Translations under genes and position numbers: made by a program | Part shown: piece by piece, positions 1 to 58,296 of the stretch | Layout: every line of letters starts with the position of its first letter | Numbering within the stretch: position 1 is the stretch's first letter | DNA from: Candidatus Forterrea multitransposorum CG_2015-17_Forterrea_25_41 | GTDB lineage: Archaea; Iainarchaeota; Iainarchaeia; Iainarchaeales; CSSED10-239 | DNA length: 64,000 nucleotides | Assembly: GCA_009392915.1 (NCBI GenBank) | Contig: CP045477.1 | Coordinates: 192,001 to 256,000 of the forward strand | Reading direction: 5' to 3' | Notes under the pieces: generated by a model | Told to the model about the DNA's origin: nothing | Seen by the model: the letters and a program-made list of their open reading frames with translations, nothing else | The model's database searches: none

Positions 1-142
1 CTTCTTGTTTTTCTTCTGGTAATTTAAGATATTTAGAAACTCCTTTCATTCCATAACCTACCATTAAACAATGTTCAAGGTTTGCTTTTTCTTTAATATG
101 TTTGTTTAATATTTCTATAGTTTTTTCTTTTGTATTGTTCAT
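1..142 (-). CDS. HD-superfamily hydrolase-like protein, N-terminal fragment (gene runs off the left edge)
   Basis: Not in the ORF track because it is truncated. The reverse complement from the ATG at 142..140 reads MNNTKEKTIEILNKHIKEKANLEHCLMVGYGMKGVSKYLKLPEEKQE. The opening pattern L.KH...NL..H...M resembles N-termini of small HD/HDIG phosphohydrolases. This is a short, recollection-based call. Confidence 0.4.
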   Translation of the reverse strand, partial: MNNTKEKTIEILNKHIKEKANLEHCLMVGYGMKGVSKYLKLPEEKQE

Positions 143-154
143 ATTTTAAAACCT

Positions 155-3100
155 TTAATTTTGATATTTATATCTTACAATAACAATTCCAGAACCACCA
201 TTTCCACCATTTGCTGATGAATTTGTTGCTGATCCGTTTCCACCATTTCCTGTGTTTGCAGCAGCAGAAGATGCATCTGAGTGAGCATCACCACCTTTAG
301 CATAAGTGTTTCCCCAAATGGTCATACCAGGACCTCCATTAGGTACTGTTCCAGGTCCTCCCGCTCCTCCTCCTCCACCAGCTCCAACATTAACAACAGA
401 GGTTGCACCAGGATATCCAAATCCTGTATTAGGATACCCATCATTTGTACTTGGTTGTGTTGCACTTCCACCATTTGCAGGCACTGCACTATAAAGGTTT
501 GCACCTCCACCTGAACCACCTGATGTACCATCTCTGGAAGGATTATCTCTTGATCCTCCACCACCACCACCATATGCAATTAAATTTTTAAATACAGAAT
601 TATTTCCATTATTTCCTGTAAAGTCTTGATTTGTAGAACCTGTTCCTCCTGCTCCTACAGTAACAGTAATATTTCCAGTACTTGAAAGTGTGTAGTCTTC
701 AACATATACAAGACCTCCAGCACCTCCTCCTCCAGGATTTCTTAAAGTATTTGTTCCTGCTTTTCCAGCACCTCCACCACCACCAACAACTAAAACATCT
801 ACTTTTCCCTCTCCTAATGTTGTTACATTAAATGTTCCACTTGATGTAAAAGTATGATATTTATAGTCTCCAGAAGTTGTAACTGTTCCTCCTGTTGCTT
901 CTAAATATCCTTGATTTATTGTTAAGTTTATAGATGCTCCTGCTGTTTGATATTGATCATTTACTATTAAAGTTATCTTATGTTCTCCTGATGATAGATT
1001 AGTTGTTGAAAAGTTACAAGTTGAACTTAAAGTTCCATCTATATTTGAATCCCAATAACATGAATGGCTTCCAGATGGATTTGTAATTGTTGAATTAAAA
1101 GTTAGGTTTTCGCCATAATTATGTGTTGATGAGTTTGAGGGAGTATCAATTGTAACTGATATTGGATTAGGTATGCTACGCATAAATATCCAAGATATAC
1201 CTACAATTCCAATTTCTTCAACTCTTAATAAAGGAATTGTACCATCGGGATCAAATGAAGAAATACTGACTGATGTAAAATCTCCACTTGTTCCTGTTAC
1301 AACTGTTGAATTATTAATTATTAAATTTCCTGAATTTGAAGAATAAGATGCAGCAGTAGATCCTAATCCATAATAGACTCTTAATTGGTTTATGTCACTA
1401 GGTCCATTCCATGTATTCATTGTAAGTAATCCATTATCTGCAGGTCCACTATAGAAAAATGATAAAAATTCAGGTCTTCTTGTATAACTTGCAAAATTAA
1501 CATTTACTCCATCATTATAATGTGTATAATAATCTAGATTATAACCATATGTAGATAGATCTGTAGTTAATATACGGTTACCATTCCATGCAGGATAAGA
1601 TGAGTCATAAGTATTATCTGTTGAAAATGAAGAATACAACATCCAACCTCCTCCATTATCTTCCATATTACAATAAATTTGAGTTGGAACTCCGTCTTTT
1701 AATATCCAATAAACTCCGTTTGTAGCACTTGGATTGTTATTTTTAATATACATTGCAGAAGGTGCTGCTTTTTCTGAAGAACTTCCATCTAAATCTATAA
1801 TTGTTATTGAAATATTTTTATCTATAGTTTGTTCTTGATCAGTAACAGATAATGTTATTGTATGTTCTCCAACTGTTAAACTACTTGTTGAAAAATCACA
1901 ATTACTTGATAAACTTCCATCTATAGATGATACCCAAGAACAACTATAACTTCCGTTTTCATTTTCTATTTGAGAATTAAAATCAATTGCTTCTCCAAAA
2001 CTGAATGTTTGTAAGTTTGTAGGAGAATTAATATTTATTGTAAGTTCTTCAACATATTCATTTTTAGTATTATCATAAATTGCTTTAATTTCATTTAAAT
2101 TTAAACTTCTGCCATATAGTCTATAGTCTGAAATCATTCCTTTAAAATATCTTGTATTTGTAGAATTTATTCCAAATTTAACTCCTCCACCTTGTGTTTC
2201 ATAACTATAAATTTCTTCTAATGTTTTTTCTAAGTTTCCATTAATATAACCTTTTAAAGTTTTTAATGTTTCATCATATGTAACTGTATAATTAATCCAT
2301 TTATTTTCTTCAACAGGATCTGAAAGCTCATAAGTTGAATATCCTCCATCTAAATCTCTCCATCTTATTTCCATTTTTTTATCAACAGGATTAATACTAA
2401 CTCTAAGATTATTTTTTTGAGACCAAAAGAAACTTTCATGTTCTAAACTTTGATTTTCTGTATAATATATCCATCCATTTATTGTAAATGAACTATAATC
2501 ACCTACATTTGAAACATTAATATAATCATTAGCTCCATCTAAATTTAATTTAGAACTACTATTCCAATTTGCAGTTCCAACAATACTTCCATTATTAGAA
2601 TTTCCTGAATAATCGTATACTGTGCTTCCTTCTCCTTCATCTATTTTCCAATATCCAATTATTTGATAATCAATACAGTCAAGTACATTATAGTTATTTG
2701 TTTTAATAGGTTTTACAATTTCTCTCCCTTTATCTGTATTTAATTTTAATATATAATTTTCTTCAGGAGCACATACAACATCTATTTCTTTAGTTTCTTT
2801 TTTTTCAATAGTTATTGGTTCTTCAAAAAATATATTTTTATTTAAATATTCTGTATCAACAGCATCTGATGCAATAAAATAACTAGTTAATACTAAATCT
2901 TGATTAATATTGTTGTTTGAAAGTACAATACTTTGATTTACAACTTCTTCAATTAAGATTTCATCTCCAATTCTTTGTATCTCAATTATAGGAATATTAT
3001 TATTTTTATCCACAACACTAAATCTTAATTCTTCAAGTCCAGGCATAATATCAATGTAGTTATAAAAAAGAATATTATTATTATAATCAATATTATAAAG

Positions 3101-3463
3101 TAGACTTGTTTCTTGTCTATTAATTATAAGTGATCCTATTTGGCTTTGTGTTTTTAGATTTTCAATACTTCTTTTATTTTTAATTTCTTGTCTTAAATAA
3201 AGATTACTTGAGTTATTATCAACTGTAATTGGGTCACTTAAATCTAAATAAACTTCTTTATAGCTTCCAACTTCTGAATCTTTTAAATCTGTTAAAATAT
3301 CATTAATATATGCTAAGTTATCTCTGTTGTTTTTCATTCTTTGTGAATCTTCTAGAGTTCCAAAATAATTCATTGCAAAATAAATAAATATACCTAAAAA
3401 TATAATACTTACAAAAAGAATTGCTATTCCTGAAAATAAAGATGTTACTCCTTTTTGATTCAT
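155..3463 (-). CDS. Pilin-like (class III signal peptide) multidomain adhesin: LamG + 2 PKD/Ig-like + fibrinogen-like + C-terminal Gly-rich domain
   Basis: The N-terminus MNQKG/VTSLFSGIAILFVSIIF is basic-Gly followed by a hydrophobic helix. LamG/ConA-like motif: GYWKIDEGEGSTVYDYSGNSNNGSIVG...LDGANDYINV...FTINGWIY. PKD-like modules: SYSCSWVSSIDGSL...GEHTITLSVTDQEQT and SHSCYWDSNIDGTL...GEHKITLIVNDQYQT. Fibrinogen-like motif: NGVYWILKDGVPTQIYCNMEDNGGGWMLY. C-terminal domain: FTSSGTFNVT...VDVLVVGGGGGAG... Its start overlaps the stop of the upstream gene by 1 nt (TAATG). Confidence 0.85.
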   Translation of the reverse strand: MNQKGVTSLFSGIAILFVSIIFLGIFIYFAMNYFGTLEDSQRMKNNRDNLAYINDILTDLKDSEVGSYKEVYLDLSDPITVDNNSSNLYLRQEIKNKRSIENLKTQSQIGSLIINRQETSLLYNIDYNNNILFYNYIDIMPGLEELRFSVVDKNNNIPIIEIQRIGDEILIEEVVNQSIVLSNNNINQDLVLTSYFIASDAVDTEYLNKNIFFEEPITIEKKETKEIDVVCAPEENYILKLNTDKGREIVKPIKTNNYNVLDCIDYQIIGYWKIDEGEGSTVYDYSGNSNNGSIVGTANWNSSSKLNLDGANDYINVSNVGDYSSFTINGWIYYTENQSLEHESFFWSQKNNLRVSINPVDKKMEIRWRDLDGGYSTYELSDPVEENKWINYTVTYDETLKTLKGYINGNLEKTLEEIYSYETQGGGVKFGINSTNTRYFKGMISDYRLYGRSLNLNEIKAIYDNTKNEYVEELTININSPTNLQTFSFGEAIDFNSQIENENGSYSCSWVSSIDGSLSSNCDFSTSSLTVGEHTITLSVTDQEQTIDKNISITIIDLDGSSSEKAAPSAMYIKNNNPSATNGVYWILKDGVPTQIYCNMEDNGGGWMLYSSFSTDNTYDSSYPAWNGNRILTTDLSTYGYNLDYYTHYNDGVNVNFASYTRRPEFLSFFYSGPADNGLLTMNTWNGPSDINQLRVYYGLGSTAASYSSNSGNLIINNSTVVTGTSGDFTSVSISSFDPDGTIPLLRVEEIGIVGISWIFMRSIPNPISVTIDTPSNSSTHNYGENLTFNSTITNPSGSHSCYWDSNIDGTLSSTCNFSTTNLSSGEHKITLIVNDQYQTAGASINLTINQGYLEATGGTVTTSGDYKYHTFTSSGTFNVTTLGEGKVDVLVVGGGGGAGKAGTNTLRNPGGGGAGGLVYVEDYTLSSTGNITVTVGAGGTGSTNQDFTGNNGNNSVFKNLIAYGGGGGGSRDNPSRDGTSGGSGGGANLYSAVPANGGSATQPSTNDGYPNTGFGYPGATSVVNVGAGGGGGAGGPGTVPNGGPGMTIWGNTYAKGGDAHSDASSAAANTGNGGNGSATNSSANGGNGGSGIVIVRYKYQN

Positions 3464-3993
3464 TATTCTTCACTTTTATTAAAATCTAATAATTCTATTT
3501 CTATAATTATTTTATTTTCATCAAGATTATAATCTTGATAACTAAAAACATAATTTGTTTGTCCTTGATTTAAATTAATTAAATTACAATCTATGTTTAT
3601 TTGGGAATTATTGTTTATTGTTTTTTTAAAATAGGCTCTATTTGATTCTTTACTAACTTCAATATCTTTTATTGTAACTAATTGATCATCTCTAATCTCT
3701 GAGTTAAAGATTATTTCTCCTCTGATTTCATTTTGATTACAATCAATCTCTAAGACTTCTGGATTATATATTGTAATTTCTTTTGCTGAAAATCTAGATT
3801 TTGAAATTTCTTGAAAAGTATTTGAAATTAAATCTATGTTTTCAATCATTTGATCAAAATTATATTTTTCTTGATTTTTTTCAATAGTATCTTGCACCAT
3901 ATAAAGTATGCTTGAAAGAATGGCTATACTTACAAATATATATAGAAAGTATGAAAATAAATTTGCTGCTCCTTTTTCTTTTCTTAAAAACAT
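3463..3993 (-). CDS. Small pilin-like protein (class III signal peptide)
   Basis: The N-terminus MFLRKEKG/AANLFSYFLYIFVSIAILSSILYMV is followed by a ~140-aa polar domain. It lies between two pilin-like adhesin genes and is translationally coupled to the downstream one. Confidence 0.7.
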   Translation of the reverse strand: MFLRKEKGAANLFSYFLYIFVSIAILSSILYMVQDTIEKNQEKYNFDQMIENIDLISNTFQEISKSRFSAKEITIYNPEVLEIDCNQNEIRGEIIFNSEIRDDQLVTIKDIEVSKESNRAYFKKTINNNSQINIDCNLINLNQGQTNYVFSYQDYNLDENKIIIEIELLDFNKSEE

Positions 3994-4005
3994 ATTTTAA
4001 AACCT

Positions 4006-6414
4006 TTATTCTATATTTAAATTTAAATTTTCAGTAATAGTTTGTTCTTGATCTGTCACTGATAATGTTATTGTGTGTTCTCCAACAGACAATGTTGAAA
4101 TATTAATATCACAATTATCTAAAGAATATTGATTATTATATAGTTTTGAAACATCTTCTTGATCTATTGCTTCATCAAAAATTAAAATATCATCCATTTT
4201 ACCATTAAAAAAATGATCATAAGTTCCAACAACTCCATTATAAGCTATAGCAGCACCAATTGCAACTGGCAAGCTATTTGATATTGATCCATAAGTTCCA
4301 ATAGGAACACTAGCATCAAGAATTCCATTAATATAAAAATTTAAATCTTGGTTGTCTTTATAAGACATAATAACATTATACCAATTATTTTGAGCATATA
4401 GAGAACCACAATTACTACAACTTTTATAGTTACTTTGAGCATCATCAATACCAGAATAAATATCCCAATTACTAGAAACATTATTAATCATTAATTGCCA
4501 ACCTGCATAACTTCCTCCGGCACCTCTTCCTCTAGTATTAATTATTCTTTGATATCCAGAACCAGTAGGATTTATCCATGTTGATACAGTAATTTCATCT
4601 AAATTTGAACTAATATTATTATCTAAAGTTGCATAGCTTGAAGTTCCATTAAAACTTAATGCATTATTTTCTCTTCCAAATCTGTCTGTTGTTCTAGTTA
4701 CATTAAATAAAGTTCCGTCAATATTCCCTATATTATCATAAATAGTATCTCCTGTAGTTTCTTCAAATCTATATTCTGCATATGGTTTTTGATATGTTAA
4801 ATTTCCATCAATTGATGATGCCCAAGAACAAGAATAATTTCCTACATTATTTGTAATATTTGTATCTATTTCTATATTATCTCCTAAAGTATATACATTT
4901 GAATCAATATTTATTTCTGCATTTAAAGATGGATTTTCTACAGTTATATTTTTTGTTTCAGTAATAGTTTGTTCTTGATCGGTCACTGATAAAGTTATGG
5001 TGTGTTCTCCAACAGACAATGTTGAAATATTAATATCACAATTATTTGAAGAATATTGATTATTATATAGTTTTGAAACATCAGAACTAGAAATTCCATT
5101 ATTAAAAATAATAATATCATCTAACTTTCCATTAAAAAAATGATTAAAAGTTCCATACACTCCATTATATGCAACTGATGTCCCAATTGCTGTTGGTAAG
5201 CTGTTTGTTATATTTCCATATGGATCTAAATTTACACTTTCATCTAATTGTCCATCAACATAAAAATTAAGATTATTATCTTCATCAAAAGACATAACAA
5301 AATGATACCATTTTCCAAGTGTCAAACTATTTCCACAAGTGTTACAACCAGTAAATGGACTTGTTGAAGAATCAACTCCTGAATAAAGATAAAAATTACT
5401 AGTTGTATCATTAATTAATATTTGCCATCCTTCAACATCTGAAGCTGCAGATCCTCTTGTGTTTATAATTCTCTGATATGTACTAGATCCATTTGATAAA
5501 AACCATCCTGATATTGCAAATCTATTAAGTTCTTGACTTATATTATTATCTAATAAAACATAGCTTGAAGTTCCATTAAAGCTTAAAGCCTTATTTTCTC
5601 TTCCAAATCTATCTGTAGTTCTTGTAATGTTATATCCATTACCATCAATATTACCTATTAAATCATAAATTATATTTCCTGAAGTTTCATTAAAATCCCA
5701 TCTTGCATAAGGTGTTTTACTTGGTATTAAGTTTCCATCAATTGATGATGCCCAAGAACAAGAATAACTTCCAACAGGGTTATTTACTTCTGATGTGAAA
5801 TTAATTGGTTCTGAAAATAAGAAAGAAGTTGCTTCTATTGGATTTGAAATATCTATAGTTGTCACAGTTTCTATTGGATTTAGATTTGGTCTTTCTTTTT
5901 GAAGATTTAATTTTTCAGAAGAATCAATTTCTCTTAAAAAACTTATTTTGTTTCTACTTATTTTTTTAATATAAATAATTGTTTTTGTGTTATTAAGATA
6001 TATTCCTTGTTCTATATCTATTCCATTGATGTCTAAACCAACAATTAATTTTTCAAATTCTCTAAAAGTATAAATTTCTCCTTCTCTAATTAATTGTCCT
6101 TCTTTATAATAATTTCCAGAAATATTATGAAATATTTCTATTTTATCTAAATTAGAATCTGCTTCAAAACTTAAACCATCAAGGTCTATTACAAAAGAGA
6201 CAACAGATCCATTTGAATTTTCTAAAACTTCTTGTATTTTTCCTTGAATTTCTTCAATATACATTCTAGATTCTTCAAATTTTTGTTGTGAATTATTTCT
6301 TTCAATTGCAGGAACAACTCCTTGATAAATAAGTCCTACAACAGCAACAATAATAAATATAACTAAGATATAACTTAAAATTTCAGAAGCTCCTCTCTGA
6401 TTTAGTCTTTTCAT
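4006..6414 (-). CDS. Pilin-like (class III signal peptide) adhesin with a tandemly duplicated PKD-like + LamG module
   Basis: N-terminus: MKRLNQRG/ASEILSYILVIFIIVAVVGLIY. Two LamG-type modules: ARWDFNETSGNIIYDLIGNIDG...ALSFNGTSSYVLLD...FAISGWF and AEYRFEETTGDTIYDNIGNIDG...ALSFNGTSSYATLD...ITVSTWI. Each module is preceded by SYSCSWASSIDGNL and followed by CDINISTLSVGEHTITLSVTDQEQTIT. Confidence 0.85.
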   Translation of the reverse strand: MKRLNQRGASEILSYILVIFIIVAVVGLIYQGVVPAIERNNSQQKFEESRMYIEEIQGKIQEVLENSNGSVVSFVIDLDGLSFEADSNLDKIEIFHNISGNYYKEGQLIREGEIYTFREFEKLIVGLDINGIDIEQGIYLNNTKTIIYIKKISRNKISFLREIDSSEKLNLQKERPNLNPIETVTTIDISNPIEATSFLFSEPINFTSEVNNPVGSYSCSWASSIDGNLIPSKTPYARWDFNETSGNIIYDLIGNIDGNGYNITRTTDRFGRENKALSFNGTSSYVLLDNNISQELNRFAISGWFLSNGSSTYQRIINTRGSAASDVEGWQILINDTTSNFYLYSGVDSSTSPFTGCNTCGNSLTLGKWYHFVMSFDEDNNLNFYVDGQLDESVNLDPYGNITNSLPTAIGTSVAYNGVYGTFNHFFNGKLDDIIIFNNGISSSDVSKLYNNQYSSNNCDINISTLSVGEHTITLSVTDQEQTITETKNITVENPSLNAEINIDSNVYTLGDNIEIDTNITNNVGNYSCSWASSIDGNLTYQKPYAEYRFEETTGDTIYDNIGNIDGTLFNVTRTTDRFGRENNALSFNGTSSYATLDNNISSNLDEITVSTWINPTGSGYQRIINTRGRGAGGSYAGWQLMINNVSSNWDIYSGIDDAQSNYKSCSNCGSLYAQNNWYNVIMSYKDNQDLNFYINGILDASVPIGTYGSISNSLPVAIGAAIAYNGVVGTYDHFFNGKMDDILIFDEAIDQEDVSKLYNNQYSLDNCDINISTLSVGEHTITLSVTDQEQTITENLNLNIE
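4030..4155. repeat. 126-nt near-identical intragenic repeat, copy 1 (pairs with 4957..5082)
   Basis: Manual alignment gives 121/126 identical positions to 4957..5082. It encodes ..VSKLYNNQYS..CDINISTLSVGEHTITLSVTDQEQTIT. All five differences are synonymous on the coding strand. Confidence 0.9.
4957..5082. repeat. 126-nt near-identical intragenic repeat, copy 2 (927 nt = 309 codons from copy 1)
   Basis: See copy 1. A more diverged third copy (~55 nt, tagtttgttcttgatcagtaacagataatgttattgtatgttctccaac) lies at about 1825..1880 in the neighbouring adhesin gene. Confidence 0.9.
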
Positions 6415-6513
6415 AATTATTCTTTATTTTTAAATATATTTTACTAATATATTATATATGAAATCTTTATAAACATATTTAATCTATATTATATATACAA
6501 TACAAAATATTGT

Positions 6514-6586
6514 GGTCCGAATAGTGTAGTGGTTAGCATATGGGTCTGTGGATCCCATGACTCGGGTTCGAATCCCGGTTCGGACC
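6514..6586 (+). tRNA. tRNA-His (GUG) with genome-encoded G-1
   Basis: Manual cloverleaf. Acceptor GUCCGAA/UUCGGAC, with an extra 5' G (6514) pairing with discriminator C73. Anticodon loop CUGUGGA. T-arm UCGGG-UUCGAAU-CCCGG. It is a GC-rich island in AT-rich sequence. Confidence 0.9.
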
Positions 6587-6727
6587 CTCTTTATTCTTTT
6601 AAATTGTTTTAAAAATTATTTTTTCTATTTTTTTAAAAATATTTTTATATGTTTTGCCATTCATTTGTTTTTTTAAAAAAACAATCTATTTTTAAATCAT
6701 ATGATTTACTATATTTTTAAAATATAA

Positions 6728-6739: not shown

Positions 6740-8188
6740 ATGCACGAAGATCTTTTTAACACCCTAAACCCACATCAAAAAGCATATATTAATTTTGAAA
6801 TTCCAAATGTTAAAAATGGAGAATATATGTTATGTGCTTTCCATTTAAGACCTGGAGGAGATTTAAATATCTTACAAGCAGCTTGTGAAACAGCAGCTGA
6901 ATCTTCAACTGGTACAAATTTTTTAGTAAACACAGAAACTCCTTTTGCAAGAGAGATGAATGCTTTAGTTTATAAATTAGATTTAGAAAAAAGTTTAGTA
7001 TGGATAGCATATCCTTGGAGACTTTTTGATAGAGGAGGAAATGTTCAAAATATCTTAACATACATTGTAGGAAATGTTTTAGGTATGAAAGAAGTTTCTG
7101 CAATTAAACTTTTAGATGTTTGGTTTCCACCAGCTATGCTTGAACAATACGATGGACCTTCCTATACTTTAGATGATATGAGAAAATATTTAGATGTTTA
7201 TGATAGACCAATTTTAGGAACAATTATAAAACCAAAAATGGGTTTAACTTCAGCAGAATATGCAGAAGCATGCTATGATTTCTGGGTTGGTGGAGGAGAT
7301 TTTGTTAAAAATGATGAACCTCAAGCAAACCAAGATTTCTGTCCATATGATAAAATGGTAAAACATGTAAAAGAAGCTATGGATAAAGCTGTAAAAGAAA
7401 CTGGTCATAAAAAAGTACATTCTTTCAATGTTTCAGCTGCAGATTATGATACAATGATTGAAAGATGTGAAATGATTGTTAATGCAGGTTTTGAAAAAGG
7501 ATCTTATGCATTTTTAATAGATGGAACTACTGCAGGTTGGATGGCAGTTCAAACTTTAAGACGTAAATATCCTGATGTTTTCCTTCATTTCCATAGAGCA
7601 GGACATGGAGCATATACAAGACCTGAAAATCCAATTGGTTTTTCTGTTTTAGTATTATCTAAATTTGCAAGACTTGCAGGAGCTTCTGGTATTCATACAG
7701 GAACTGCAGGTGTAGGAAAAATGGCAGGTACTCCAACAGAAGATATTACAGCTGCAACTGGTATTTTAAAATTAGTCTCAGAAGGACATATTTTCCATCA
7801 ATCATGGTCAACTGTTCCTGAAAAAGATTTAGATGTTGTAAAGCTTGCACAAGAGGATGAAGCTCATCATGTTATCTTAGAAGATGATAGTTGGAGAGGT
7901 CTTAAAAAATGTACTCCAATAATCTCTGGTGGTCTAAATCCAACTCTTCTTAAACCATTTATTGATTTAATGGGTGGAGTTGATTTTATAACAACTATGG
8001 GTGCTGGTTGTCATGCTCATCCAAAAGGTACACAAGCAGGCGCTAAGGCTTTAGTTCAAGCATGTGAAGCATACCAGAAAGGAATTTCTATTGAAGAATA
8101 TTCAAAAGATAGACCTGAGCTTGCAGAAGCTATTGAGTTTTTTACAAAGAAAAAGCATGTTGATAACTTAAAGAAGGAGTTTTCTTAA
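6740..8188 (+). CDS. rbcL: Ribulose-1,5-bisphosphate carboxylase/oxygenase large subunit, form II/III
   Basis: Form II-type active-site motifs: TIIKPKMGL, GGGDFVKNDEPQANQ, FHRAGHGA, SGIHTGT, TPIISGG. There is also a ~29-aa insertion (STVPEKDLDVVKLAQEDEAHHVILEDDSWRGLK) where form II has a short GGMKA-like segment. Confidence 0.95.
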   Translation: MHEDLFNTLNPHQKAYINFEIPNVKNGEYMLCAFHLRPGGDLNILQAACETAAESSTGTNFLVNTETPFAREMNALVYKLDLEKSLVWIAYPWRLFDRGGNVQNILTYIVGNVLGMKEVSAIKLLDVWFPPAMLEQYDGPSYTLDDMRKYLDVYDRPILGTIIKPKMGLTSAEYAEACYDFWVGGGDFVKNDEPQANQDFCPYDKMVKHVKEAMDKAVKETGHKKVHSFNVSAADYDTMIERCEMIVNAGFEKGSYAFLIDGTTAGWMAVQTLRRKYPDVFLHFHRAGHGAYTRPENPIGFSVLVLSKFARLAGASGIHTGTAGVGKMAGTPTEDITAATGILKLVSEGHIFHQSWSTVPEKDLDVVKLAQEDEAHHVILEDDSWRGLKKCTPIISGGLNPTLLKPFIDLMGGVDFITTMGAGCHAHPKGTQAGAKALVQACEAYQKGISIEEYSKDRPELAEAIEFFTKKKHVDNLKKEFS

Positions 8189-13814: not shown

Positions 13815-16013
13815 TTATCTATATGTTTCATCTATATAGCTAATATCTTCTCCAATAACAACTTCTGTTTCTTCTTGACTTGTAAAGTTATATGTCTTTA
13901 ATAAATTATTAGTTATAGTATACAATTCATCTCCAATATATAAACTTCTAGCAATAGATCCATAGTAATATCTATTTTTCTTTGTGTGATCAATAGTTGT
14001 TATTTTACTAATACCATCTTTATCTGCTTTTAAAACAACAAATCCAAACTCAGAAGATGATGTATTATATCTTTCAGTAATAGGAAGTACAACTAAATTA
14101 TTCTTTGAAATATATAAGAATGCTTTATGATCGTAAGATACTTGTGTATTTGAATAACTTGCACTTGAAACCCATTTTCCAACTTCTTTAGGATTTGAAA
14201 AATCACTTACATCAAACAAAGCAACCTTAACTCCAGAATTATTAGTTCCACCCCATTCATTAGCTTCAGTTTCTTGACCAATACCTAATATTAAATTTTC
14301 AGATATTGGATGAAGATAATCAGAGTAACCTGAAATTTTTAAATAACCTAGAACTTTTGGTTTTGTAGGGTTTTCTAAATCAATTACAAAGAAAGGATCA
14401 ACTTGTCTGTATGTAACTAAATAAAGTTTATCTCCCATAAATCTAGCACTATATATTCTTTCATTTGGTGCAATTTCATCAACAATTCCAACTTCATTTA
14501 AAGAACTATTTAAAACTGTAACTGCATTTTTTGAAATAGTAGAATATCCGTTGTAATCTTGATAAGTTGTTGCAACTCTTAAATAACCTTCTTCTTCATC
14601 TAATGAAAATTGATTTAAAAGTTTTCCTTTAACTTCTCCTTGTGATATACTTCCAAAGCTACCATCTAAAAGAAGTTCAATTCTGTTAATGTATGTTTTA
14701 TCATATTGATTTCTTTCTTCTTGATAATATTTATCAGATTCTTCTTGTATTAAATTATATAATTCTTCTTTTTCTTCTTTGTCAAGAGTTTGATAGTAGT
14801 TATTTAATATTTCAATTAATTTTTCAGAATCATTTAAATTACTTTCAATTTCTTTAGCTATATTTGTAGGATATACTTTTTCATAGATTGATTCAAAAAC
14901 TAAATCTTTTGAATAGTTATTCCATCCAAATCTAAAGAAAGGATAATACATATTTTTTTCAGTTACAACATATAGGTTATTATTACTCATATATATTGTA
15001 TTTGAATTATCAAGTATGATTTCTATACTATCAATAATTGAAGATTCTTTTTCTAAATAATTAAGTGAAGTTAAATTATACATTACTTTAGATTCTTCAC
15101 TAACATCTCTTGGCATAATTATTTTAGATTCAAAATTACTTACAACATCATTTTTAATTTCTTTAACAGGCATTATAAATCTATCATAATAGATGTTAGG
15201 GTTAAAATCATATAGATAATCATTAGTTATAATATATACAATTCCATCTTTCATTCTTGATTGATAGTAGTTGCCTTTAATTTCTACGCTGTTAAGTTTT
15301 GAAAGAGAATTTTCTTCTATTCTATAAGTTTCAACAACAGTAAATGGTATATAAGTCATTTGAGGATAAAGATAAGAATATTGAGTAAATTTACTTTCTA
15401 CAATATTTTTTTCAATTATTACATATAAAAGGTCTTCTGTATCTAAGAACATTCCTTTAATTGTTAAATATTCTGCATTTTGATCATTAATTTTAACAGT
15501 ATATTTTTCTTCATCAGCTATAGGAACATCAACATCATTTATTACTGTTATTGTTTTGTCTTTTGCAATAAATATTTGTTTTCCATTAGTTTTTACAATA
15601 TCTCCTTCATCTATACCAGAAACTTGTACATTAGTTTGAGAAAAATCATTTTCAGCTCCTGTTGATTGAACAGAACTATCAGTTGCCATAATAGGCATTG
15701 ATTCTTCCATGGTTTTAGACATATCTCCTACTCTAATACTATTACTTGAATTAGTGGTAGTTAAAAGAGTTAATAGTTCTTGGGAGGTAATTGTTACAAA
15801 TGGTGATTCTTCATTTGTTTTAAAATCACTATATGTTAAATTTTCATAGTTTTTTTCTGTTGATTGATCACTAAGATATTCATCTTGGTTATCATCTATT
15901 ATTTTATTTTTTAAAATATTTTGATTAATTACAAGTCCAACAACTAATAGTGCAAGAACAAGTATTATAATCCCTAAAAATAAATTTGATTTATTTTTCA
16001 TATATCTTTTCAC
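13815..16013 (-). CDS. Secreted beta-propeller domain protein (COG4880 / Beta_propel family)
   Basis: N-terminal TM/signal LFLGIIILVLALLVVGLVI. Family-typical blocks: VSGIDEGDIVKTNGKQIFIA, YQSRMKDGIVYIITN, and SARFMGDKLYLVTYRQVDPFFVIDLENPTKPKVLGYLKISGYSDYLHP. Confidence 0.85.
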   Translation of the reverse strand: MKRYMKNKSNLFLGIIILVLALLVVGLVINQNILKNKIIDDNQDEYLSDQSTEKNYENLTYSDFKTNEESPFVTITSQELLTLLTTTNSSNSIRVGDMSKTMEESMPIMATDSSVQSTGAENDFSQTNVQVSGIDEGDIVKTNGKQIFIAKDKTITVINDVDVPIADEEKYTVKINDQNAEYLTIKGMFLDTEDLLYVIIEKNIVESKFTQYSYLYPQMTYIPFTVVETYRIEENSLSKLNSVEIKGNYYQSRMKDGIVYIITNDYLYDFNPNIYYDRFIMPVKEIKNDVVSNFESKIIMPRDVSEESKVMYNLTSLNYLEKESSIIDSIEIILDNSNTIYMSNNNLYVVTEKNMYYPFFRFGWNNYSKDLVFESIYEKVYPTNIAKEIESNLNDSEKLIEILNNYYQTLDKEEKEELYNLIQEESDKYYQEERNQYDKTYINRIELLLDGSFGSISQGEVKGKLLNQFSLDEEEGYLRVATTYQDYNGYSTISKNAVTVLNSSLNEVGIVDEIAPNERIYSARFMGDKLYLVTYRQVDPFFVIDLENPTKPKVLGYLKISGYSDYLHPISENLILGIGQETEANEWGGTNNSGVKVALFDVSDFSNPKEVGKWVSSASYSNTQVSYDHKAFLYISKNNLVVLPITERYNTSSSEFGFVVLKADKDGISKITTIDHTKKNRYYYGSIARSLYIGDELYTITNNLLKTYNFTSQEETEVVIGEDISYIDETYR

Positions 16014-18972: not shown

Positions 18973-20421
18973 TTGTGTTTTATTATGATTTTCAAACAAT
19001 CAAAGAATCAAATTAAAAGAGATTTCTCTTTTTCTGTAAAAGATGGGATTTTTTGGGTACTAATGAATTCTATAGCTATAATTTTTTTAGTTCCATATTT
19101 AGTTTCTTTAGGTGCAAATTCTTTTCAAATAGGTCTTTTAAATTCATTTCCTTTATTTATAACTTCTTTTTTAGTTTTAATATCTTATAAACTTTTAAAA
19201 ATATTTAAATCTAAAAAACATGCAGTTGTAATTTTTTTAACATTACAAGCTTTAATGTGGATTCCTCTTGCAATGGCTTATTTCTTTTTTCCAAATTCAA
19301 TTACTATTTGGATTATAATTTTAATTTATACAATAATAACTGCTTTAGGAACAATTATTCATCCAATTTACATGGACTGGATAAGAAAACTTTTTCCAAC
19401 AAAACAAATGGGTTCTTATATTGCAAAAAAAAATATAATTTTAGAGTTTGTTTCAATTTTTCCAATTTTTTTAATAGGTTATATTTTAGATGTTATTTTC
19501 AAATCAAATACTTTTATTGGTTATTCAATAATTTTTGTATTTGCAGGAATATTTAGATATTTTTCAACAAGATTTTTAAATAAAATGAGTGAAACAGAAG
19601 ATAAAGAAGCTATTTTAAAACTTGTAAAAGAAAAAGAAAAAATTCCTCTTTTAAAATCTTTTAAAGATGAAGTTATAAAAGATAAGTCTTTTTTAAAGTT
19701 TTTAATTTTTATCATTCTATCATATATTGGTATTCACTTAGCAACTTCTTATGTTTCTTATTTTGTTTTAAACTTTTTAAATTATTCTTCTACTCAATAT
19801 GTTCTATGGAAAATTTCTTTTATTTTAGGAACTGTTTTAAGTTTAAGTTATTGGGGTTATATTTCAGATAAATATAGTCCTGTAAAAGTTTTACAAATAA
19901 GTACTTTATTTATGCCTTTATTTTTAATAATTCCTGCATTCTTTTATTCTAGTTATTCTTTAATGATTTTTTCAATTTTTGTTGGAGGTGTTATTTTTGG
20001 TGCTTTTAATTTAGGGGTTTTAGATTATCTTTTTAAAAATATAAAAAGAGATTTAATAGGTCATAGTTCTTATTTTTTAATAATACAAGCAAGTTCAATT
20101 TTTATTGGAACTCTTCTAGGTTCTGGAATAATTTATTTAGCAACAAAATTTTATTCTTCAGAATTCAAGGCTTTAATATTTTTATTTGTATTTACAATAT
20201 TTTTTAGATACATAGCATTTTTCTATTCTTTAAAGCTTAAAAAATTAGAAAGAAGAGATCTTAGATTTTTTAAATATGTTATTTTTCAAAGACCTGTTCT
20301 TTATGGTTTACTTCAATTTACTCATCTTTCACATGAAGAAAAAAAATTACTACTTGATTTAAAATTAAAATCTGAATTTAAAAAAATTAAATCAAAATTA
20401 TTTAATCAGAAAAAACAGTAG
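18973..20421 (+). CDS. MFS-type transporter
   Basis: About 12 hydrophobic helices with a central cytoplasmic loop (NKMSETEDKEAILKLVKEKEK), which is the major-facilitator layout. The likely start is ATG 18985. Substrate unknown. Confidence 0.6.
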   Translation: MCFIMIFKQSKNQIKRDFSFSVKDGIFWVLMNSIAIIFLVPYLVSLGANSFQIGLLNSFPLFITSFLVLISYKLLKIFKSKKHAVVIFLTLQALMWIPLAMAYFFFPNSITIWIIILIYTIITALGTIIHPIYMDWIRKLFPTKQMGSYIAKKNIILEFVSIFPIFLIGYILDVIFKSNTFIGYSIIFVFAGIFRYFSTRFLNKMSETEDKEAILKLVKEKEKIPLLKSFKDEVIKDKSFLKFLIFIILSYIGIHLATSYVSYFVLNFLNYSSTQYVLWKISFILGTVLSLSYWGYISDKYSPVKVLQISTLFMPLFLIIPAFFYSSYSLMIFSIFVGGVIFGAFNLGVLDYLFKNIKRDLIGHSSYFLIIQASSIFIGTLLGSGIIYLATKFYSSEFKALIFLFVFTIFFRYIAFFYSLKLKKLERRDLRFFKYVIFQRPVLYGLLQFTHLSHEEKKLLLDLKLKSEFKKIKSKLFNQKKQ

Positions 20422-22924
20422 CTGTTTTTCCTCCATCCCATGTAATTCTTGGTCTTATTTTTAGAAGCATTACTTTTTCGGAGTTATCATCAATCATTAT
20501 TGCATATCCTTGTTCTTTTGGCATTTGTGCATAATATTTATCCATAGGTATATTTAGATAACTAGGTCTAATTGATGAAACTGCTTGAATATCTTCTTGT
20601 GCTGTCATTCTCATACTTAAGAAAAGATCACATTGAGAGATTGTTTCAGAATGTAGTTTATTTGGTCTTTGGGTTGCAAGGATTAATGAAAGTCCTGGTT
20701 GCCTTCCAACTCTTATCCATTGCAATAAAACATCTAAAGCCATACTAGGTCTGTCTTGAGGCATAAACATGTGTGCTTCATCTATTACCATCCAGACAAT
20801 AGGCATTTCACTTGTTTTTCTTTTTCCTTCAAGAAGATTTTTTTCTTCTTCTTTTCTATAAAGCATTCTTTCTTCATATAGTCTTTTTCCTAAAAGTCCA
20901 ACTATAAGTTCTTGAACTGATTCCATTCCAATTGCTTGTTTATATGTTGAAACATCAATTGTTGTAATTGTTCCTGGCTTTGCAAATTCTTTCATAGTTG
21001 TTCCTGATTTTGAAAAAAGACCCCATGATTTTGCAATTTTCATTCTATTTATTAAAGAGTCTTTAATTTCTTTTGTTGTTTCTGAATCTGTTAAAGCTAC
21101 TTTAATAATATCATCAATATCATAAAGATTTCCAAGTTTTTGTTTTAAAATATCAATACTTCTTGACAGAAGTCCAGATTCTGGATCTCTCCAAGTTAGT
21201 CTAAAAAGACCAAGCCAGTCTTCTAAATCTACTTGTGAAGATCTTATTGAAAAAGGTGAATCAAAAGGTATTTCTTTTTCTTTATAAAAATCTTGTTTTC
21301 CTGCAGGAATCATATTTCTAATACCAATACCATCTGCCTTTAAATCCCATTTATCTAATAGTTCTTTAGGTACTTCTTTATTTGGATAGTTCATGGTCCA
21401 AAAAATACCTACAGTGTCAATAACAATTACAGAAAGTCTATCTTTAACATCAAAAGGTTGTCTTGCAAATTCTTCCATAACAACAGATAGAGTATAACTG
21501 TTGTGTATTATTATATTATTTGCAATAAAATTATGGTTTTTTAAAACTGTTATGTCATAAACTTCAAATTTTCCTTTTAAATGATTAATTTCTTTAATCT
21601 CATCCCAATAGATATCTGATGTTGCTATTTTTTCAAGTTCTTTATTATTTTCTTTTTTTGCAATAATTAATAATTTTTCTCTTGAAGGTGCATAATTTAT
21701 TGATGATCTAATTGCTTTTGGTGTTTTATAATTAAATTCTACACCAATATTTTTCCATCCGTTTAAAGGTTTAAAATTATTCCAAATTTCTTTAGGAATT
21801 GTATCAATATTTGGATTTTTAATTTTATTTTTATATTTTAATGTTTTTTTTTCTTTTTCTCCAATAAATCCAATTTCTTTAATATATTTTTCTACATCTT
21901 GTTCTAATATTTCAAGTTCATAACTATCTCTTTTTTTAGTTTTCTTTTTTCTAATTTTTGAAAGTATTTCTAGTTTTAATAAGATTCCTTGAATCTGTAG
22001 TATCATTTTTTTAGAAGAAGATGAGTAACTTATTCTACATCTTTTTTCTTTTTCAAAATAAATTGTTCCATCACAACTAAACATTCTATTTAAAAATAAA
22101 GCAAGGTTTTCTTTTTTTTGTTTAAATATAATTTCTGGAATTTCTTTTTGATATGATAATTTATTATACATTCCAATTTGTTTAATATATTCTTTTAAAC
22201 TTCCTTTCTGGTATGGATTTTCTTTTCCTTTTTTCCATATAACTTTGTAATTATATTTTCCTATTTCTTTTAAGTCTAGTTCTTTATCAAATAATTTTAT
22301 TGAAGATCTAAAATCATTTACAATTTTGTCATCACCATTACAAAAAAGTACAACTCTATTTGAAAGATGCCCTTCTGCAAGAAGATATGCAATTAATTTA
22401 ATATTTTCTTTTTTTAATTTATCTTTACCTATATTATTTAATTTTCTAGGTGTTGCAATTCTTGACTTTACTTTAAGATCTTTTGCTTCTTTCCAACCTT
22501 CTAAAGTAAGTAATGGATGTTCTAAAGTTAATTTTATTTCTTTTCCACTTCTAAGTTTAATTTCTAAAAGTTCATTTACTTTTCTTTTAAAAAAGTTTTC
22601 TTTTTTAGCTTTTTCTATTTTTAAATTATCATTAATAGACATTACTTTAAGATTTGTATTTTCTAAATCTTTTATTTCAATTTCTCTTCCATCTTCTAAA
22701 GCTATTAAAGTGTCTCCAGTTACACATTTTCCGCCGCCCCTTTTTCCGCAGATAATCATTACATGTGATCTTGAAAGATCCATTAATACTTTTTTACCTA
22801 AAACAGGGTCATCTCCTCCAGAGACAACTACTTTTCCTAAATATCCAGTTGCTTTTTCTTTGTATTTATCAAGATCGCTTTGTTTTCTTCCAACTACAAT
22901 ATTATCTGTAAAATCTAAACTCAT
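20402..22924 (-). CDS. HerA-like (DUF87/COG0433, FtsK-HerA superfamily) ATPase interrupted by an intein
   Basis: The spliced Walker A would read ICGKRGGGK-SYTLSVVMEE. Walker B: WMVIDEAHMF. HerA-typical block: LATQRPNKLHSETISQCDLFLSMRMTAQEDIQAV. C-terminus: KIRPRITWDGG. The exteins are 66 + 365 aa. Confidence 0.85.
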   Translation of the reverse strand: MSLDFTDNIVVGRKQSDLDKYKEKATGYLGKVVVSGGDDPVLGKKVLMDLSRSHVMIICGKRGGGKCVTGDTLIALEDGREIEIKDLENTNLKVMSINDNLKIEKAKKENFFKRKVNELLEIKLRSGKEIKLTLEHPLLTLEGWKEAKDLKVKSRIATPRKLNNIGKDKLKKENIKLIAYLLAEGHLSNRVVLFCNGDDKIVNDFRSSIKLFDKELDLKEIGKYNYKVIWKKGKENPYQKGSLKEYIKQIGMYNKLSYQKEIPEIIFKQKKENLALFLNRMFSCDGTIYFEKEKRCRISYSSSSKKMILQIQGILLKLEILSKIRKKKTKKRDSYELEILEQDVEKYIKEIGFIGEKEKKTLKYKNKIKNPNIDTIPKEIWNNFKPLNGWKNIGVEFNYKTPKAIRSSINYAPSREKLLIIAKKENNKELEKIATSDIYWDEIKEINHLKGKFEVYDITVLKNHNFIANNIIIHNSYTLSVVMEEFARQPFDVKDRLSVIVIDTVGIFWTMNYPNKEVPKELLDKWDLKADGIGIRNMIPAGKQDFYKEKEIPFDSPFSIRSSQVDLEDWLGLFRLTWRDPESGLLSRSIDILKQKLGNLYDIDDIIKVALTDSETTKEIKDSLINRMKIAKSWGLFSKSGTTMKEFAKPGTITTIDVSTYKQAIGMESVQELIVGLLGKRLYEERMLYRKEEEKNLLEGKRKTSEMPIVWMVIDEAHMFMPQDRPSMALDVLLQWIRVGRQPGLSLILATQRPNKLHSETISQCDLFLSMRMTAQEDIQAVSSIRPSYLNIPMDKYYAQMPKEQGYAIMIDDNSEKVMLLKIRPRITWDGGKTATVFSD
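21500..22726 (-). mobile_element. Intein (409 aa) with LAGLIDADG homing-endonuclease domain, inserted in the P-loop
   Basis: It starts at Cys67 (GGGK/CVTGDTLIAL) and has block B LTLEHPLL. LAGLIDADG motifs: LIAYLLAEGHL and FLNRMFSCDGTI. The C-terminal splicing block is VYDITVLKNHNFIANNIIIHN/S. Codon positions were checked against the DNA (TGT at 22726..22724, AAC-AGT at 21502..21497). Confidence 0.9.
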
Positions 22925-33121: not shown

Positions 33122-33367
33122 ATGCCTAGTAAAAGACAGAAAGGAATGGTTTTAATATCCGTAATTGCAACAGCTTTGTTTGTTTTATCAAATATTTTCT
33201 TTATTACTTTAAGTAGTAATGATTTAAAACAAACAGATATAAGCTATCAAGATAGAATTTCACAATATAAGATGCCTTTTTCAACAGCTCCTTATTGTGG
33301 AGATTTAACTTGTAATTATTCTTACGGAGAAAATCCATTAAATTGTCCTCAAGATTGTTATATGTAG
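33122..33367 (+). CDS. Small pilin-like/secreted protein with Cys motif
   Basis: The N-terminus MPSKRQKG/MVLISVIATALFVLSNIFFITL is class III signal-like. The C-terminus is CGDLTCNYSYGENPLNCPQDC. The SD GGAGG lies 7 nt upstream. Confidence 0.5.
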   Translation: MPSKRQKGMVLISVIATALFVLSNIFFITLSSNDLKQTDISYQDRISQYKMPFSTAPYCGDLTCNYSYGENPLNCPQDCYM

Positions 33368-33489: not shown

Positions 33490-34041
33490 ATGGCAGTTTG
33501 GTTAATTATTTTGATCATAGTTGGTGTACTTCTTTTAATTGTGTTTGGTATCTATAATAGTTTAATAAGATTAAGAAACAGAGTTAAAAATTCTTGGAGT
33601 CAAATCGATGTTCAATTAAAGAAAAGATTTGATTTAGTTCCAAACTTAATTGAAACTGTTAAAGGATATATGACACATGAAAAAGAGACTTTAACTAAGA
33701 TTACTCAACTAAGATCTCAAGCAATGAGTGCAACTGATATGAGTATGAAAGCAAAAGCTAATAATCAACTTTCAAAAGCTTTATCAGGTTTAAATATTGC
33801 TGTTGAAAGTTATCCTGATTTAAAAGCAAGTCAGAATTTTTTAATGCTTCAAGAAGAACTTTCAGGTATTGAAAATAAAATTGCATATGCAAGACAATTC
33901 TATAATGATTCAGTAATGATTTATAACAATAAAATAGAAATGTTTCCATCAAACATCTTTGCAAGCATGTTTAATTTTAAGAAAGAACAATTTTTCGAAG
34001 CACCAGAAGAAGAAAGAAAGAATGTTAAGGTTTCTTTCTAA
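33490..34041 (+). CDS. lemA: LemA family protein
   Basis: N-terminal TM, then [39 protein letters not shown]...[39 protein letters not shown], the textbook LemA pattern. Confidence 0.92.
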   Translation: [183 protein letters not shown]

Positions 34042-36384: not shown

Positions 36385-36606
36385 ATGGCTAATATGACTT
36401 TAAGTATACCTGATGATCTTTTAAAAGAATTAAAAAAACACTCTTATATTAAATGGAGTGAAGTTGCAAGAATTGCTTTTGAAGAAAAGGTAAGTGCTTT
36501 AGAAAGAATAGATGTTTTTAAAGAATTTCAAGAAGCTGAAAGAGATTTTAAAGATGGAAAAAGTATTTCTTTAGAACAATTAAAAAAGGAACTTGGTAAA
36601 AAATGA
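36385..36606 (+). CDS. Ribbon-helix-helix (CopG-like) small protein
   Basis: MANMTLSIPDDLLKELKKH... is a typical RHH beta-strand plus helix start. Its stop overlaps the next gene's start (ATGA, 36603..36606). Confidence 0.5.
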   Translation: MANMTLSIPDDLLKELKKHSYIKWSEVARIAFEEKVSALERIDVFKEFQEAERDFKDGKSISLEQLKKELGKK

Positions 36607-49378: not shown

Positions 49379-49487
49379 TTCTTTTCTTTTTTTATTTTTT
49401 TAGTAAAAAGAAATATATAAAAATATAAACATCTTATTTATATTAGTTAATATAATATATTAAAGATATAATTGGTGTTATCTAATC

Positions 49488-51167: not shown

Positions 51168-51297
51168 ATTCACTTTTTAATGTTAATAAAAAGGTATTTA
51201 AATGTATAAGCACTATAATTATATAACAAATAACATAGTTTTTAAAAGATTATGTTATAAAAATATAATATATTATAATATATACGAGAGATGATTT

Positions 51298-58269: not shown

Positions 58270-58281
58270 TTTTTATAAACT

Positions 58282-58288
58282 AAGAGGT
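58282..58288 (+). promoter_or_regulatory. Shine-Dalgarno-like AAGAGGT 8 nt upstream of the giant gene D start
   Basis: There is only a 27-nt gap between the stop of C (58269) and the start of D (58297), which implies co-transcription. Confidence 0.45.
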
Positions 58289-58296
58289 TATGAAAT

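Follow-up and report, generated by a model that had tools for sequence, protein, structure and literature searches.

A close described counterpart of the locus presented here is the type IV pilus tip complex of Streptococcus sanguinis (PMC8179133, PMC9934059), in which PilA, PilB and PilC, encoded by adjacent genes, comprise one small cargo-free pilin and two large modular pilins, each a short pilin module to which a linker attaches a binding module, one of these binding modules being a ConA-like/LamG lectin; the proposed role is that of an adhesive complex at the tip. In type II secretion and type IV pilus systems, GspI-J-K and FimU-PilVWX with PilY1 likewise form heteromeric sets of co-encoded low-abundance pilin paralogues that prime and cap the filament and present a bulky adhesin, and GspK carries a domain inserted inside its pilin fold. 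The predicted adhesins and minor pilins of archaeal type IV pilus loci are class III-signal proteins with adhesin-like, lectin or Ig domains, among them the DUF2341 "PilY-like" proteins (arCOG03508) and the M. maripaludis Epd cluster (Makarova et al. 2016, PMC4858521; bioRxiv 10.64898/2026.04.22.720090). The Sulfolobus bindosome combines large class III-signal carbohydrate-binding proteins with small pilin-like partners (BasABC) in a surface assembly and not a long pilus. It is listed as TFF subsystem 4I (bioRxiv 10.64898/2026.04.22.720090).

We analysed a 64-kb window, meaning the whole stretch of DNA examined, from a tiny-genome DPANN archaeon (Iainarchaeota), in which three genes with pilin-type N-termini, called here A, B and C, form a conserved operon. 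The ORF list recovers the three consecutive minus-strand genes described in the initial annotation at 6414..4006 (802 aa), 3993..3463 (176 aa) and 3463..155 (1102 aa), and the 12-nt spacing between A and B and the 1-nt overlap of B and C (TAATG) that it reported are both visible directly in the sequence. The exact gene A and gene C proteins are present in 73 and 80 collection blocks, respectively, besides the source contig. The genes, their N-terminal modules and the adjoining downstream gene are as follows, in window positions.

4006..6414, minus strand: gene A, 802 aa; pilin-like N-module, then two tandem 307-aa repeats (PKD-like with nested LamG)
5890..6414, minus strand: pilin-like N-module of gene A, residues 1-175; MKRLNQRG leader, hydrophobic segment 7-39, then a helix/beta region
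3463..3993, minus strand: gene B, 176 aa; pilin-like subunit without cargo, the conserved core of the trio
155..3463, minus strand: gene C, 1102 aa; modules listed further below
2939..3463, minus strand: pilin-like N-module of gene C, residues 1-175; MNQKG/VTSLF, hydrophobic segment at residues 4-37
1..142, minus strand: 5' end of an HD-domain gene (187 aa), 12 nt beyond gene C; HD at 8.1e-7

All three proteins begin with class III-type signals, as had been claimed from the first reading: the leaders are MKRLNQRG/ASEIL in A, MFLRKEKG/AANLF in B and MNQKG/VTSLF in C (QRG/A, EKG/A and QKG/V around the putative cleavage site), and a Kyte-Doolittle scan finds in each protein one hydrophobic segment, N-terminal and spanning residues 4-39 overall. 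A simple pilin rule, requiring [KR][GAS] in the first 25 aa followed by 20 uncharged hydrophobic residues, was applied to the 62 window ORFs of at least 60 aa and picked five, namely the trio, 33122..33367 and 49488..51167, exactly the five such N-termini counted before. The K-[GAS] site just before the hydrophobic stretch is kept in homologues of all three families, divergent relatives included. A FlaFind-type pattern is fitted by C and the 81-aa ORF, and A and B have a polar +3 residue.

Failure of archaeal pilin predictors to recognise the N-termini had been named as a refuting outcome. With the curated pilin and archaellin profiles (Pfam Class_IIIsignal, Pilin_N and N_methyl, and the NCBIfam pilin models) no N-module rose above threshold, the gene A N-module having a weak match to the DUF7289 N-terminus (4.4e-4, 20.3 bits vs a cutoff of 27), and none of 20 relatives (0/20) had a pilin family match. 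A separate 559-aa window protein reached 16 bits with ComGF, whose cutoff is 80. Profile-profile comparison relates the three N-modules to one another, since the A module aligns with the B and C modules at 88-94% in hhalign and the C module with the B module at 93.5% across 116 columns; these alignments run 70-127 columns, past the transmembrane segment, and the helix is predicted to run on past the membrane segment for about 30 more residues, a pilin-like trait.

The signals might also be the ordinary signal-anchors of unrelated, merely adjacent surface proteins, given that the genome is extremely AT-rich and that, at 25% GC, Lys-rich starts and Ile/Leu/Phe-rich segments are common; moreover, BLAST similarity between the N-modules is lost once the hydrophobic segment is removed. 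Chance composition of this sort is very improbable, because the rule fits only five of 62 ORFs, the profile alignments pass the transmembrane segment and each N-module is conserved as a unit irrespective of the cargo attached to it. We favour, as the probable explanation, that A, B and C are type IV pilin-like (class III signal peptide) proteins, A and C being modular pilins, each of the three with a pilin module of about 170 aa composed of a short basic leader ending in G, a hydrophobic helix of 22-24 residues predicted to pass into a long alpha-1 helix, and a predicted small beta domain.

The cargo of gene A consists of an internal repeat whose two 307-aa copies are about 57% identical, each a PKD-like module split by a LamG domain.

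5047..5727, minus strand: LamG/ConA-like domain no. 1, residues 230-456, within a loop of PKD-like module no. 1; Toxin_R_bind_N/LamG matches
5728..5859 and 4930..5046, minus strand: halves of PKD-like module no. 1, flanking LamG no. 1
4120..4797, minus strand: LamG/ConA-like domain no. 2, residues 540-765, within PKD-like module no. 2; best Pfam stretch 589-756
4798..4929 and 4009..4119, minus strand: halves of PKD-like module no. 2, flanking LamG no. 2

The nesting is evident when the contiguous PKD-like module 1 of gene C is used as a template: the rejoined flanks of LamG no. 1 are identical to it at 47/82 positions with a 1-residue gap, and those of LamG no. 2 at 44/77. Gene C runs, from N- to C-terminus, through its pilin-like N-module, an unassigned region, LamG, a PKD-like module, an intelectin/fibrinogen-like module, a second PKD-like module and a TNF-like/poly-glycine tip.

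2564..2938, minus strand: region of gene C, residues 176-300, with no family assignment; a Pfam search even at E<=10 gives nothing here
2084..2539, minus strand: LamG/ConA-like domain, residues 309-460; Laminin_G_3 at 3.2e-17
1790..2041, minus strand: PKD-like Ig module 1, residues 475-558, contiguous; sub-threshold PKD/Big_7/PKD_2/PKD_3
1154..1789, minus strand: intelectin/fibrinogen-like module, residues 559-770, of which only residues 561-620 (1604..1783) are detectably similar to known members
908..1153, minus strand: PKD-like Ig module 2, residues 771-852; PKD 18.9 and PKD_4 14.6 bits, both sub-threshold
158..913, minus strand: Gly_rich_2 C-terminal domain, Pfam 873-1099, modelled 851-1102; TNF-like plus poly-glycine
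1019..1837, minus strand: strain-variable cassette of gene C; in blastn, strain L001 gives no alignment to L010/L011 here, with 96-98% identity on either side

The LamG/ConA-like modules previously noted in the large proteins clear the Laminin_G_3 gathering score of 27.6 bits, with 126.4 bits in A (two copies, 1.3e-36) and 63.5 bits in C; they belong to the Laminin_G_3/ConA-like lectin superfamily (PF13385) and are putative sugar-binding modules. TafC of the Tat-dependent fimbriae (NF052521) also gave a match, but to the LamG part only and at 65 bits against an equivalog cutoff of at least 410; there is no twin-arginine motif, and the Tafi of haloarchaea depend on Tat (PMC11821415). As for the PKD-like modules, every trio match to PKD (PF00801 and relatives) stays below the Pfam gathering score, at 15-19 bits vs 23.5 and with several Ig-like families tied, so the label "PKD-like Ig" is reasonable, not profile-confirmed. 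The two modules of gene C share 42/82 residues, and homologous modules in proteins P0003 and P0035 carry precomputed PKD matches.

The fibrinogen-like motif and the Gly-rich terminal domain announced for the last protein both have a profile match above cutoff. Residues 561-620 match NCBIfam GGGWT_bact at 1.7e-13 (50.3 bits vs a cutoff of 30) and, in PDB, intelectin-1 at E 6.6e-4 over 54 residues and XEEL at 2.8e-3, while Fibrinogen_C reaches 17.1 bits, under its cutoff of 22, in a match confined to the N-terminal segment of the module. The terminal domain matches Gly_rich_2 (PF21722) at 2.6e-23, above cutoff; by profile and by fold similarity to solved members, it is of the phage tail-fibre TNF-like plus poly-glycine receptor-binding type.

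This homology with phage tail-fibre tips, which extends to matches with tail PHROGs, suggests another origin, in which the trio would equip an integrated virus or mobile element for receptor binding and would serve the virion or the transfer of the element instead of adhesion; the nuclease, toxin and RadC genes nearby would then be part of a provirus. The surroundings are in part consistent with this, with a tRNA-His gene adjoining gene A, PD-(D/E)XK exonuclease, YhcG, HicA-like and RadC genes with PHROG matches downstream, and an integrase close to the locus in one relative. However, A and B have no PHROG matches, genes for a capsid, portal, terminase or further tail parts were not found around the trio, all three proteins bear cellular class III-type signals and the Gly-rich domain is merely one of several interchangeable cargo modules. 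Furthermore, the trio stays beside RuBisCO, at the same chromosomal position, even between species sharing only 61% identity in their B proteins, a stable vertical synteny across the phylum, and such an origin is thus extremely improbable. Downstream, the HD-domain gene (L017 13322..13885, on the source contig) and the 87-aa HicA-like gene (13900..14163) are also kept in relatives, in identical order in L002, L004, L006 and L014.

Cargo differs between close strains. In strain L012, 97-98% identical, the blastn alignment to the window stops at 5888 and restarts at 3997, and the missing stretch is the following.

3998..5887, minus strand: whole cargo part of gene A, missing in L012

What is left there is a gene A of 180 aa, a pilin-like module alone, which ends 2 nt ahead of gene B; the contexts of this module are bare (180 aa), LamG/PKD (802 aa) and a CHB_HEX/Fn3_assoc/DUF285 cargo (560 aa). 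In gene C, L010/P0001 has PKD{Gly-rich}+PKD in place of the cassette and L011/P0002 has PKD{LamG}+PKD, between a shared prefix of about 539 aa and a shared suffix of about 245 aa. The gene C N-module is 53% identical in P0003 and P0004, whose cargo differs, and at least five different cargo arrays occur behind it. DUF2341+LamG cargo occurs in distant relatives of genes B and A (L014); DUF2341 was not found in the window trio proteins themselves. A and C are therefore modular pilins sensu Raynaud et al. 2021, provided that the N-module is a true pilin module, and because their sugar-binding and tail-fibre-like modules differ between close strains, the trio are good candidates for recognising surfaces or partner cells.

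The check for genomic linkage suggested earlier was positive for one part of the machinery. A Peptidase_A24 gene (283 aa, L017 20981..21832) lies on the source contig 7.7 kb from gene C, and the same-species copy scores 2.8e-10, above cutoff, with a GGGD motif. T2SSE/FlaI ATPase and TadC/FlaJ platform genes are absent from the window and its 10-kb flanks (of a 663-kb contig), and no ATPase, platform or major pilin gene is linked to the trio in these ~84 kb or at any relative's locus. Type IV pili genes have been reported in reference Diapherotrites genomes (PMC8561730).

This missing linkage, together with the silent pilin HMMs and the fact that the sole hydrophobic segment of A, B and C is N-terminal with other anchors absent, would also suit membrane-anchored surface lectins or a bindosome-like assembly in place of pilus subunits. 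On this view the helix at the N-terminus, whether or not it is processed, would do no more than hold the proteins in the membrane, or in an envelope-embedded pseudopilus of very short length; glycans or cells would be caught by the lectin modules on the cell surface, with adhesion or the scavenging of nutrients as possible uses. In archaea, large binding proteins that form no filament do carry class III signals, reportedly so, in work by Zolghadr and colleagues of 2007 and 2011, for the sugar-binding proteins of the Sulfolobus bindosome. This explanation is possible but unlikely, given the K-[GAS] site retained directly ahead of the hydrophobic stretch in divergent relatives, the pilin-like extension of the helix and a conserved three-paralogue set with a cargo-free member, which suggests co-assembly over independent anchors; it also overlaps our main explanation, because the bindosome too depends on T4P-type machinery.

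Returning to the pilin-like reading, the Peptidase_A24 prepilin peptidase would remove the leaders of A, B and C, whose hydrophobic N-terminal helices would bundle, B, which lacks cargo, being the core subunit, to give a minor-pilin complex at a type IV filament tip or a short pseudopilus. In A, the pilin module would bear a PKD-like Ig stalk whose loops house two LamG lectin domains; in C, the stalk would display one LamG, a lectin module of intelectin/fibrinogen type and, farthest out, the TNF-like/poly-glycine tip, a kind with which phage tail fibres recognise receptors. The complex may let these modules contact glycans or surface proteins on other cells or on substrates. Strains exchange, duplicate or lose cargo, plausibly via recombination at the repeated PKD-like modules, and this would retune binding specificity. 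The filament with adhesin subunits first proposed is thus supported in part: the data show the gene structure, the N-terminal features, the relatedness of the modules, the cargo families and their swapping, and a peptidase gene, while leader cleavage, co-assembly, tip location, the ligands and the way of recombination are what we infer.

More speculatively, and rather doubtfully, the trio could be a lineage-specific "programmable tip", a three-subunit pilin-like scaffold with which DPANN strains swap receptor-binding cassettes (Ig-loop-nested lectins, modules of intelectin type and tail-fibre tips of phage origin) and so set their attachment partners or surfaces. If true, it would work like phage host-range switching via tail-fibre tip swaps, and the trio would be a primary determinant of DPANN partner specificity.

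Compared with known systems, the trio departs from the bindosome, whose proteins bind substrates for ABC transporters and are linked to BasEF (ATPase and platform), in its lectin, Ig and tail-fibre-type cargo and in lacking transporter linkage. The T2SS/T4P tip complexes belong to diderm bacteria, have four subunits plus a separate non-pilin adhesin and show no detectable homology to the trio, although the inserted domain of GspK parallels its nested-domain theme. Genes for the known archaeal adhesins and minor pilins, unlike the trio, stand next to those for the ATPase and TadC, and a conserved cassette of three paralogues has not been described among them; the trio lacks DUF2341, and its N-modules match none of the described pilin families. 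Against cyanophage Pam3 gp24, Bxb1 gp33/gp29, S16 gp38 and the ALK glycine-rich domain, the gene C tip forms the end of a cellular pilin-like protein, whereas the phage tips belong to trimeric fibres that dock to the baseplate by an N-terminal helix, and a chaperone gene is not evident at the trio. With intelectins/X-type lectins (human intelectin-1, Xenopus XEEL), which bind microbial glycans, and with bacterial GGGWT-domain proteins, gene C shares "Y-C-[DN]-M-x3-GGGW" and about 30 preceding residues, only ~55 of ~210 residues being alignable. Finally, the S. sanguinis system is bacterial, has an N-methyl-Phe/E5-type signal (IPR012902), lies inside the pil machinery locus and carries a single module (vWA or lectin) as cargo, whereas the trio, with no sequence homology to it in the pilin modules, is detached from the machinery and bears arrays of several domains on PKD-like stalks, with some domains nested in others, a phage-type tip and cargo that varies at the level of the strain.

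The trio of pilin-like genes belongs to an organism placed in the phylum Iainarchaeota (Diapherotrites, DPANN), in a window of ~25% GC, and sits among the following features, where L017 is the source-contig stretch to the left of the window.

6414..4006, minus strand: gene A, open reading frame of 802 aa
3993..3463, minus strand: gene B, open reading frame of 176 aa
3463..155, minus strand: gene C, open reading frame of 1102 aa
1019..1837, minus strand: variable middle cassette of gene C, from strain comparison
6515..6587, plus strand: tRNA-His, directly flanking gene A
6740..8188, plus strand: form III RuBisCO gene, flanking the gene A side of the trio
1..142, continuing into L017, minus strand: HD-domain gene, 187 aa, 12 nt after gene C
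L017, 14 nt after the HD gene: HicA-like gene, 87 aa (HD and HicA-like pair, L017 13322..14163)
L017 from 20981, 7.7 kb beyond gene C, outside the window on the source contig: Peptidase_A24 (prepilin peptidase) gene, 283 aa

The sequence shows a 12-nt gap between genes A and B and a one-base overlap (TAATG) between B and C; the initial annotation had described the three minus-strand frames, their lengths and their spacing exactly. At the N-terminus of each protein stands a short basic leader whose last residues are K/R-G, and the protein's sole hydrophobic segment comes next (residues 4-39). A simple rule, requiring [KR][GAS] within the first 25 residues and then 20 uncharged hydrophobic residues, selects 5 of the 62 window ORFs of at least 60 aa, namely the trio, 33122..33367 and 49488..51167, which are the same five class III-type N-termini counted before; that such N-termini are a compositional coincidence we consider unlikely. 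The isolated N-modules gave no pilin family above threshold in Pfam and NCBIfam at E<=10, the A, B and C module profiles returned only noise against all PDB sequences, and a Foldseek search of the PDB with the B model yielded nothing beyond Ig-like matches of low probability. The kinship of the N-modules rests on profile-profile comparison, because BLAST of the modules stripped of the hydrophobic segment found no significant similarity. Upstream, 6415..6514 is uniformly AT-rich and uninformative, and a sigma-70 promoter scan was discarded, being inapplicable to archaea. Three ORFs inside gene C at 281..579 (62-85 aa, both strands) were rejected as alternative-frame artefacts of a GGN-rich coding region.

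The large proteins had been said to carry LamG and PKD domains, and here the two parts fared differently: Laminin_G_3 is significant in Pfam for both gene A (two copies, 1.3e-36) and gene C (3.2e-17), whereas every PKD-type match in A and C falls under the Pfam gathering score, and for that reason we use “PKD-like Ig module” as a descriptive label only. The other two modules proposed for gene C held, the fibrinogen-like motif as an NCBIfam GGGWT_bact match (1.7e-13, above cutoff), whose nearest solved structures are intelectin-1 and XEEL (E 6.6e-4), and the Gly-rich terminal domain as Gly_rich_2 (2.6e-23, Pfam). Membership in the TafC fimbrial family was rejected, the match being confined to the LamG portion.

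Across relatives, conservation covers the N-modules and B and does not extend to the cargo, that is, the domains C-terminal of the ~170-175-aa N-module. In one close strain variant, gene A is a bare 180-aa module with flanks 97-98% identical, and window 3998..5887 is absent there; in another species it encodes 560 aa with CHB_HEX_C_1/Fn3_assoc/DUF285 cargo, and in the divergent relative L014, 482 aa with DUF2341 and LamG. Two strain variants with 96-98% identity in the flanking DNA agree with gene C over its first ~539 and last ~245 residues, and the middle cassette is intelectin-like in the window haplotype, a Gly-rich domain nested within a PKD-like module in one variant (L010, protein P0001) and LamG nested within a PKD-like module in the other (L011, protein P0002). 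More distant C homologues have PKD arrays with DUF285 repeats, or two Gly-rich domains with LamG and Flg_new_2 repeats. The halves of the PKD-like modules are 50-60-nt DNA repeats; genes A and C together hold four copies, 63-94% identical, which are plausible candidate sites of recombination. Identical copies of A are present in 73 blocks of the assembly collection, of B in 90 and of C in 80, and the haplotype therefore comes from a repeatedly sampled population.

The order A-B-C-HD-(HicA-like) is repeated in three divergent relatives (L002, L004 and L006, with B proteins 52-68% identical) and in the more distant L014, with the HD and HicA-like genes holding their position downstream of gene C in all four. 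RuBisCO also adjoins the trio in a species with just 61% identity in protein B. An exhaustive HMM search of 1.84 billion representative proteins found only 21 relatives of the B family; about a third of the 20 scanned against Pfam join the B-type module to DUF2341 and/or LamG cargo, and DUF2341 proteins are predicted PilY-like tip adhesins in archaeal T4P loci (PMC4858521).

Beyond the HicA-like gene lies an island (L017 14166..18138) with a PD-(D/E)XK/DUF2800 exonuclease, YhcG/DUF1016, RadC and small ORFs, in which several genes have PHROG matches and none is a virion gene; a Phage_integr_3 integrase also lies near the trio locus in L002. A provirus origin of the trio was considered and largely rejected, and is the least probable of the readings weighed here.

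The suggested check for linkage to assembly machinery located the peptidase, 7.7 kb from gene C; among all window ORFs of at least 100 aa and 10 kb on either side, as well as beside the trio in any relative, neither a T2SSE-type ATPase nor a TadC/FlaJ platform gene occurs. A Peptidase_A24 copy of the same species scores above the Pfam cutoff and has the GGGD active-site motif. The peptidase gene is directly beside SRP54, with FtsY just beyond (L017 20981..23255; L010 6465..10807), in what looks like a small “protein export” cluster. Reference Diapherotrites genomes are annotated with type IV pili (PMC8561730). The HerA/DUF87-like P-loop ATPase at 20402..22924 (minus), split by an intein with a LAGLIDADG endonuclease, was rejected as a secretion ATPase, given its DUF87/HerA identity, the intein, NurA nearby and the lack of any T2SSE match; the NurA nuclease gene itself (36603..37673, plus) is 14 kb away, not adjacent.

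The lack of a linked ATPase or platform gene is consistent with the main rival reading, a surface lectin assembly, membrane-anchored or bindosome-like, outside any long filament, which we regard as possible, though less likely. The best-supported reading, held with moderate confidence, treats A, B and C as modular pilin-like proteins of an archaeon that form a tip minor-pilin complex or a short pseudopilus. Under this mechanism, the A24 peptidase would remove the three leaders, the hydrophobic alpha-1 helices would assemble jointly, B supplying the cargo-free core, and the resulting complex, at a filament tip or as a short pseudopilus, would use Ig stalks to hold out a number of independent binding modules toward putative ligands, with the cargo presumably swapped among strains.

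Elsewhere in the window, the 81-aa ORF at 33122..33367 (plus), whose N-terminus is of class III type and whose tail is rich in Cys, has no family matches and stands alone between PEP synthase and LemA genes, and as the sole short pilin-like candidate there is a possible major pilin. DUF2207 and LemA genes are usually neighbours; here, the DUF2207 membrane protein (28606..30342, plus) and LemA (33490..34041, plus) have the PEP synthase gene and this ORF between them. The fifth candidate, the 559-aa gene at 49488..51167, split into 154 and 364 aa in a sister sample, is embedded in a giant surface protein cluster (41363..63900; 2671, 2323 and 1867 aa; CarboxypepD_reg/SpaA/Big_1-like Ig folds), which extends past the window into the right-hand stretch (L018 15642..25604) with a 964-aa gene and one of at least 2466 aa.

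Little is known of how DPANN archaea recognise partner cells or surfaces and attach to them, and very few lineages are in cultivation. This locus of three co-translated pilin-like proteins is a compact and concrete candidate for that function with clear experimental handles, given that LamG, the intelectin-like module and the phage-type poly-glycine tip are identifiable and expressible as recombinant proteins, and that the natural strain variants form an “allelic series” in which the cargo is absent or is LamG, Gly-rich, intelectin-like, DUF285 or DUF2341. Should this mechanism prove mistaken and A, B and C be no more than membrane-anchored proteins, they are still the window's best candidates for hypervariable surface lectins. 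The trio extends to Archaea the “modular pilin” concept, which came from bacterial surveys keyed to the N-methylation motif, and brings out two design features that earlier work had not stressed: an Ig scaffold that houses binding domains within a Cys-flanked loop, and a cellular pilin-like protein that makes renewed use of a phage receptor-binding fold.

A survey keyed to the bacterial IPR012902 motif shows modular pilins to be common among bacteria, and the paper makes no mention of archaea (PMC8179133). In function, the nearest precedent is PilA/PilB/PilC of S. sanguinis, one small pilin plus two modular pilins, of which one bears a ConA-like lectin; the set has been modelled as a tip complex (PMC9934059), and class III-signal proteins with adhesin-like domains were already noted inside archaeal T4P loci. 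Unlike these known systems, the trio is a conserved three-paralogue cassette, detached from assembly machinery and confined to a narrow DPANN clade, with binding domains nested in Ig loops, a tip of the phage tail-fibre type, and strain-level gain, loss and swap of cargo that include a cargo-free allele.
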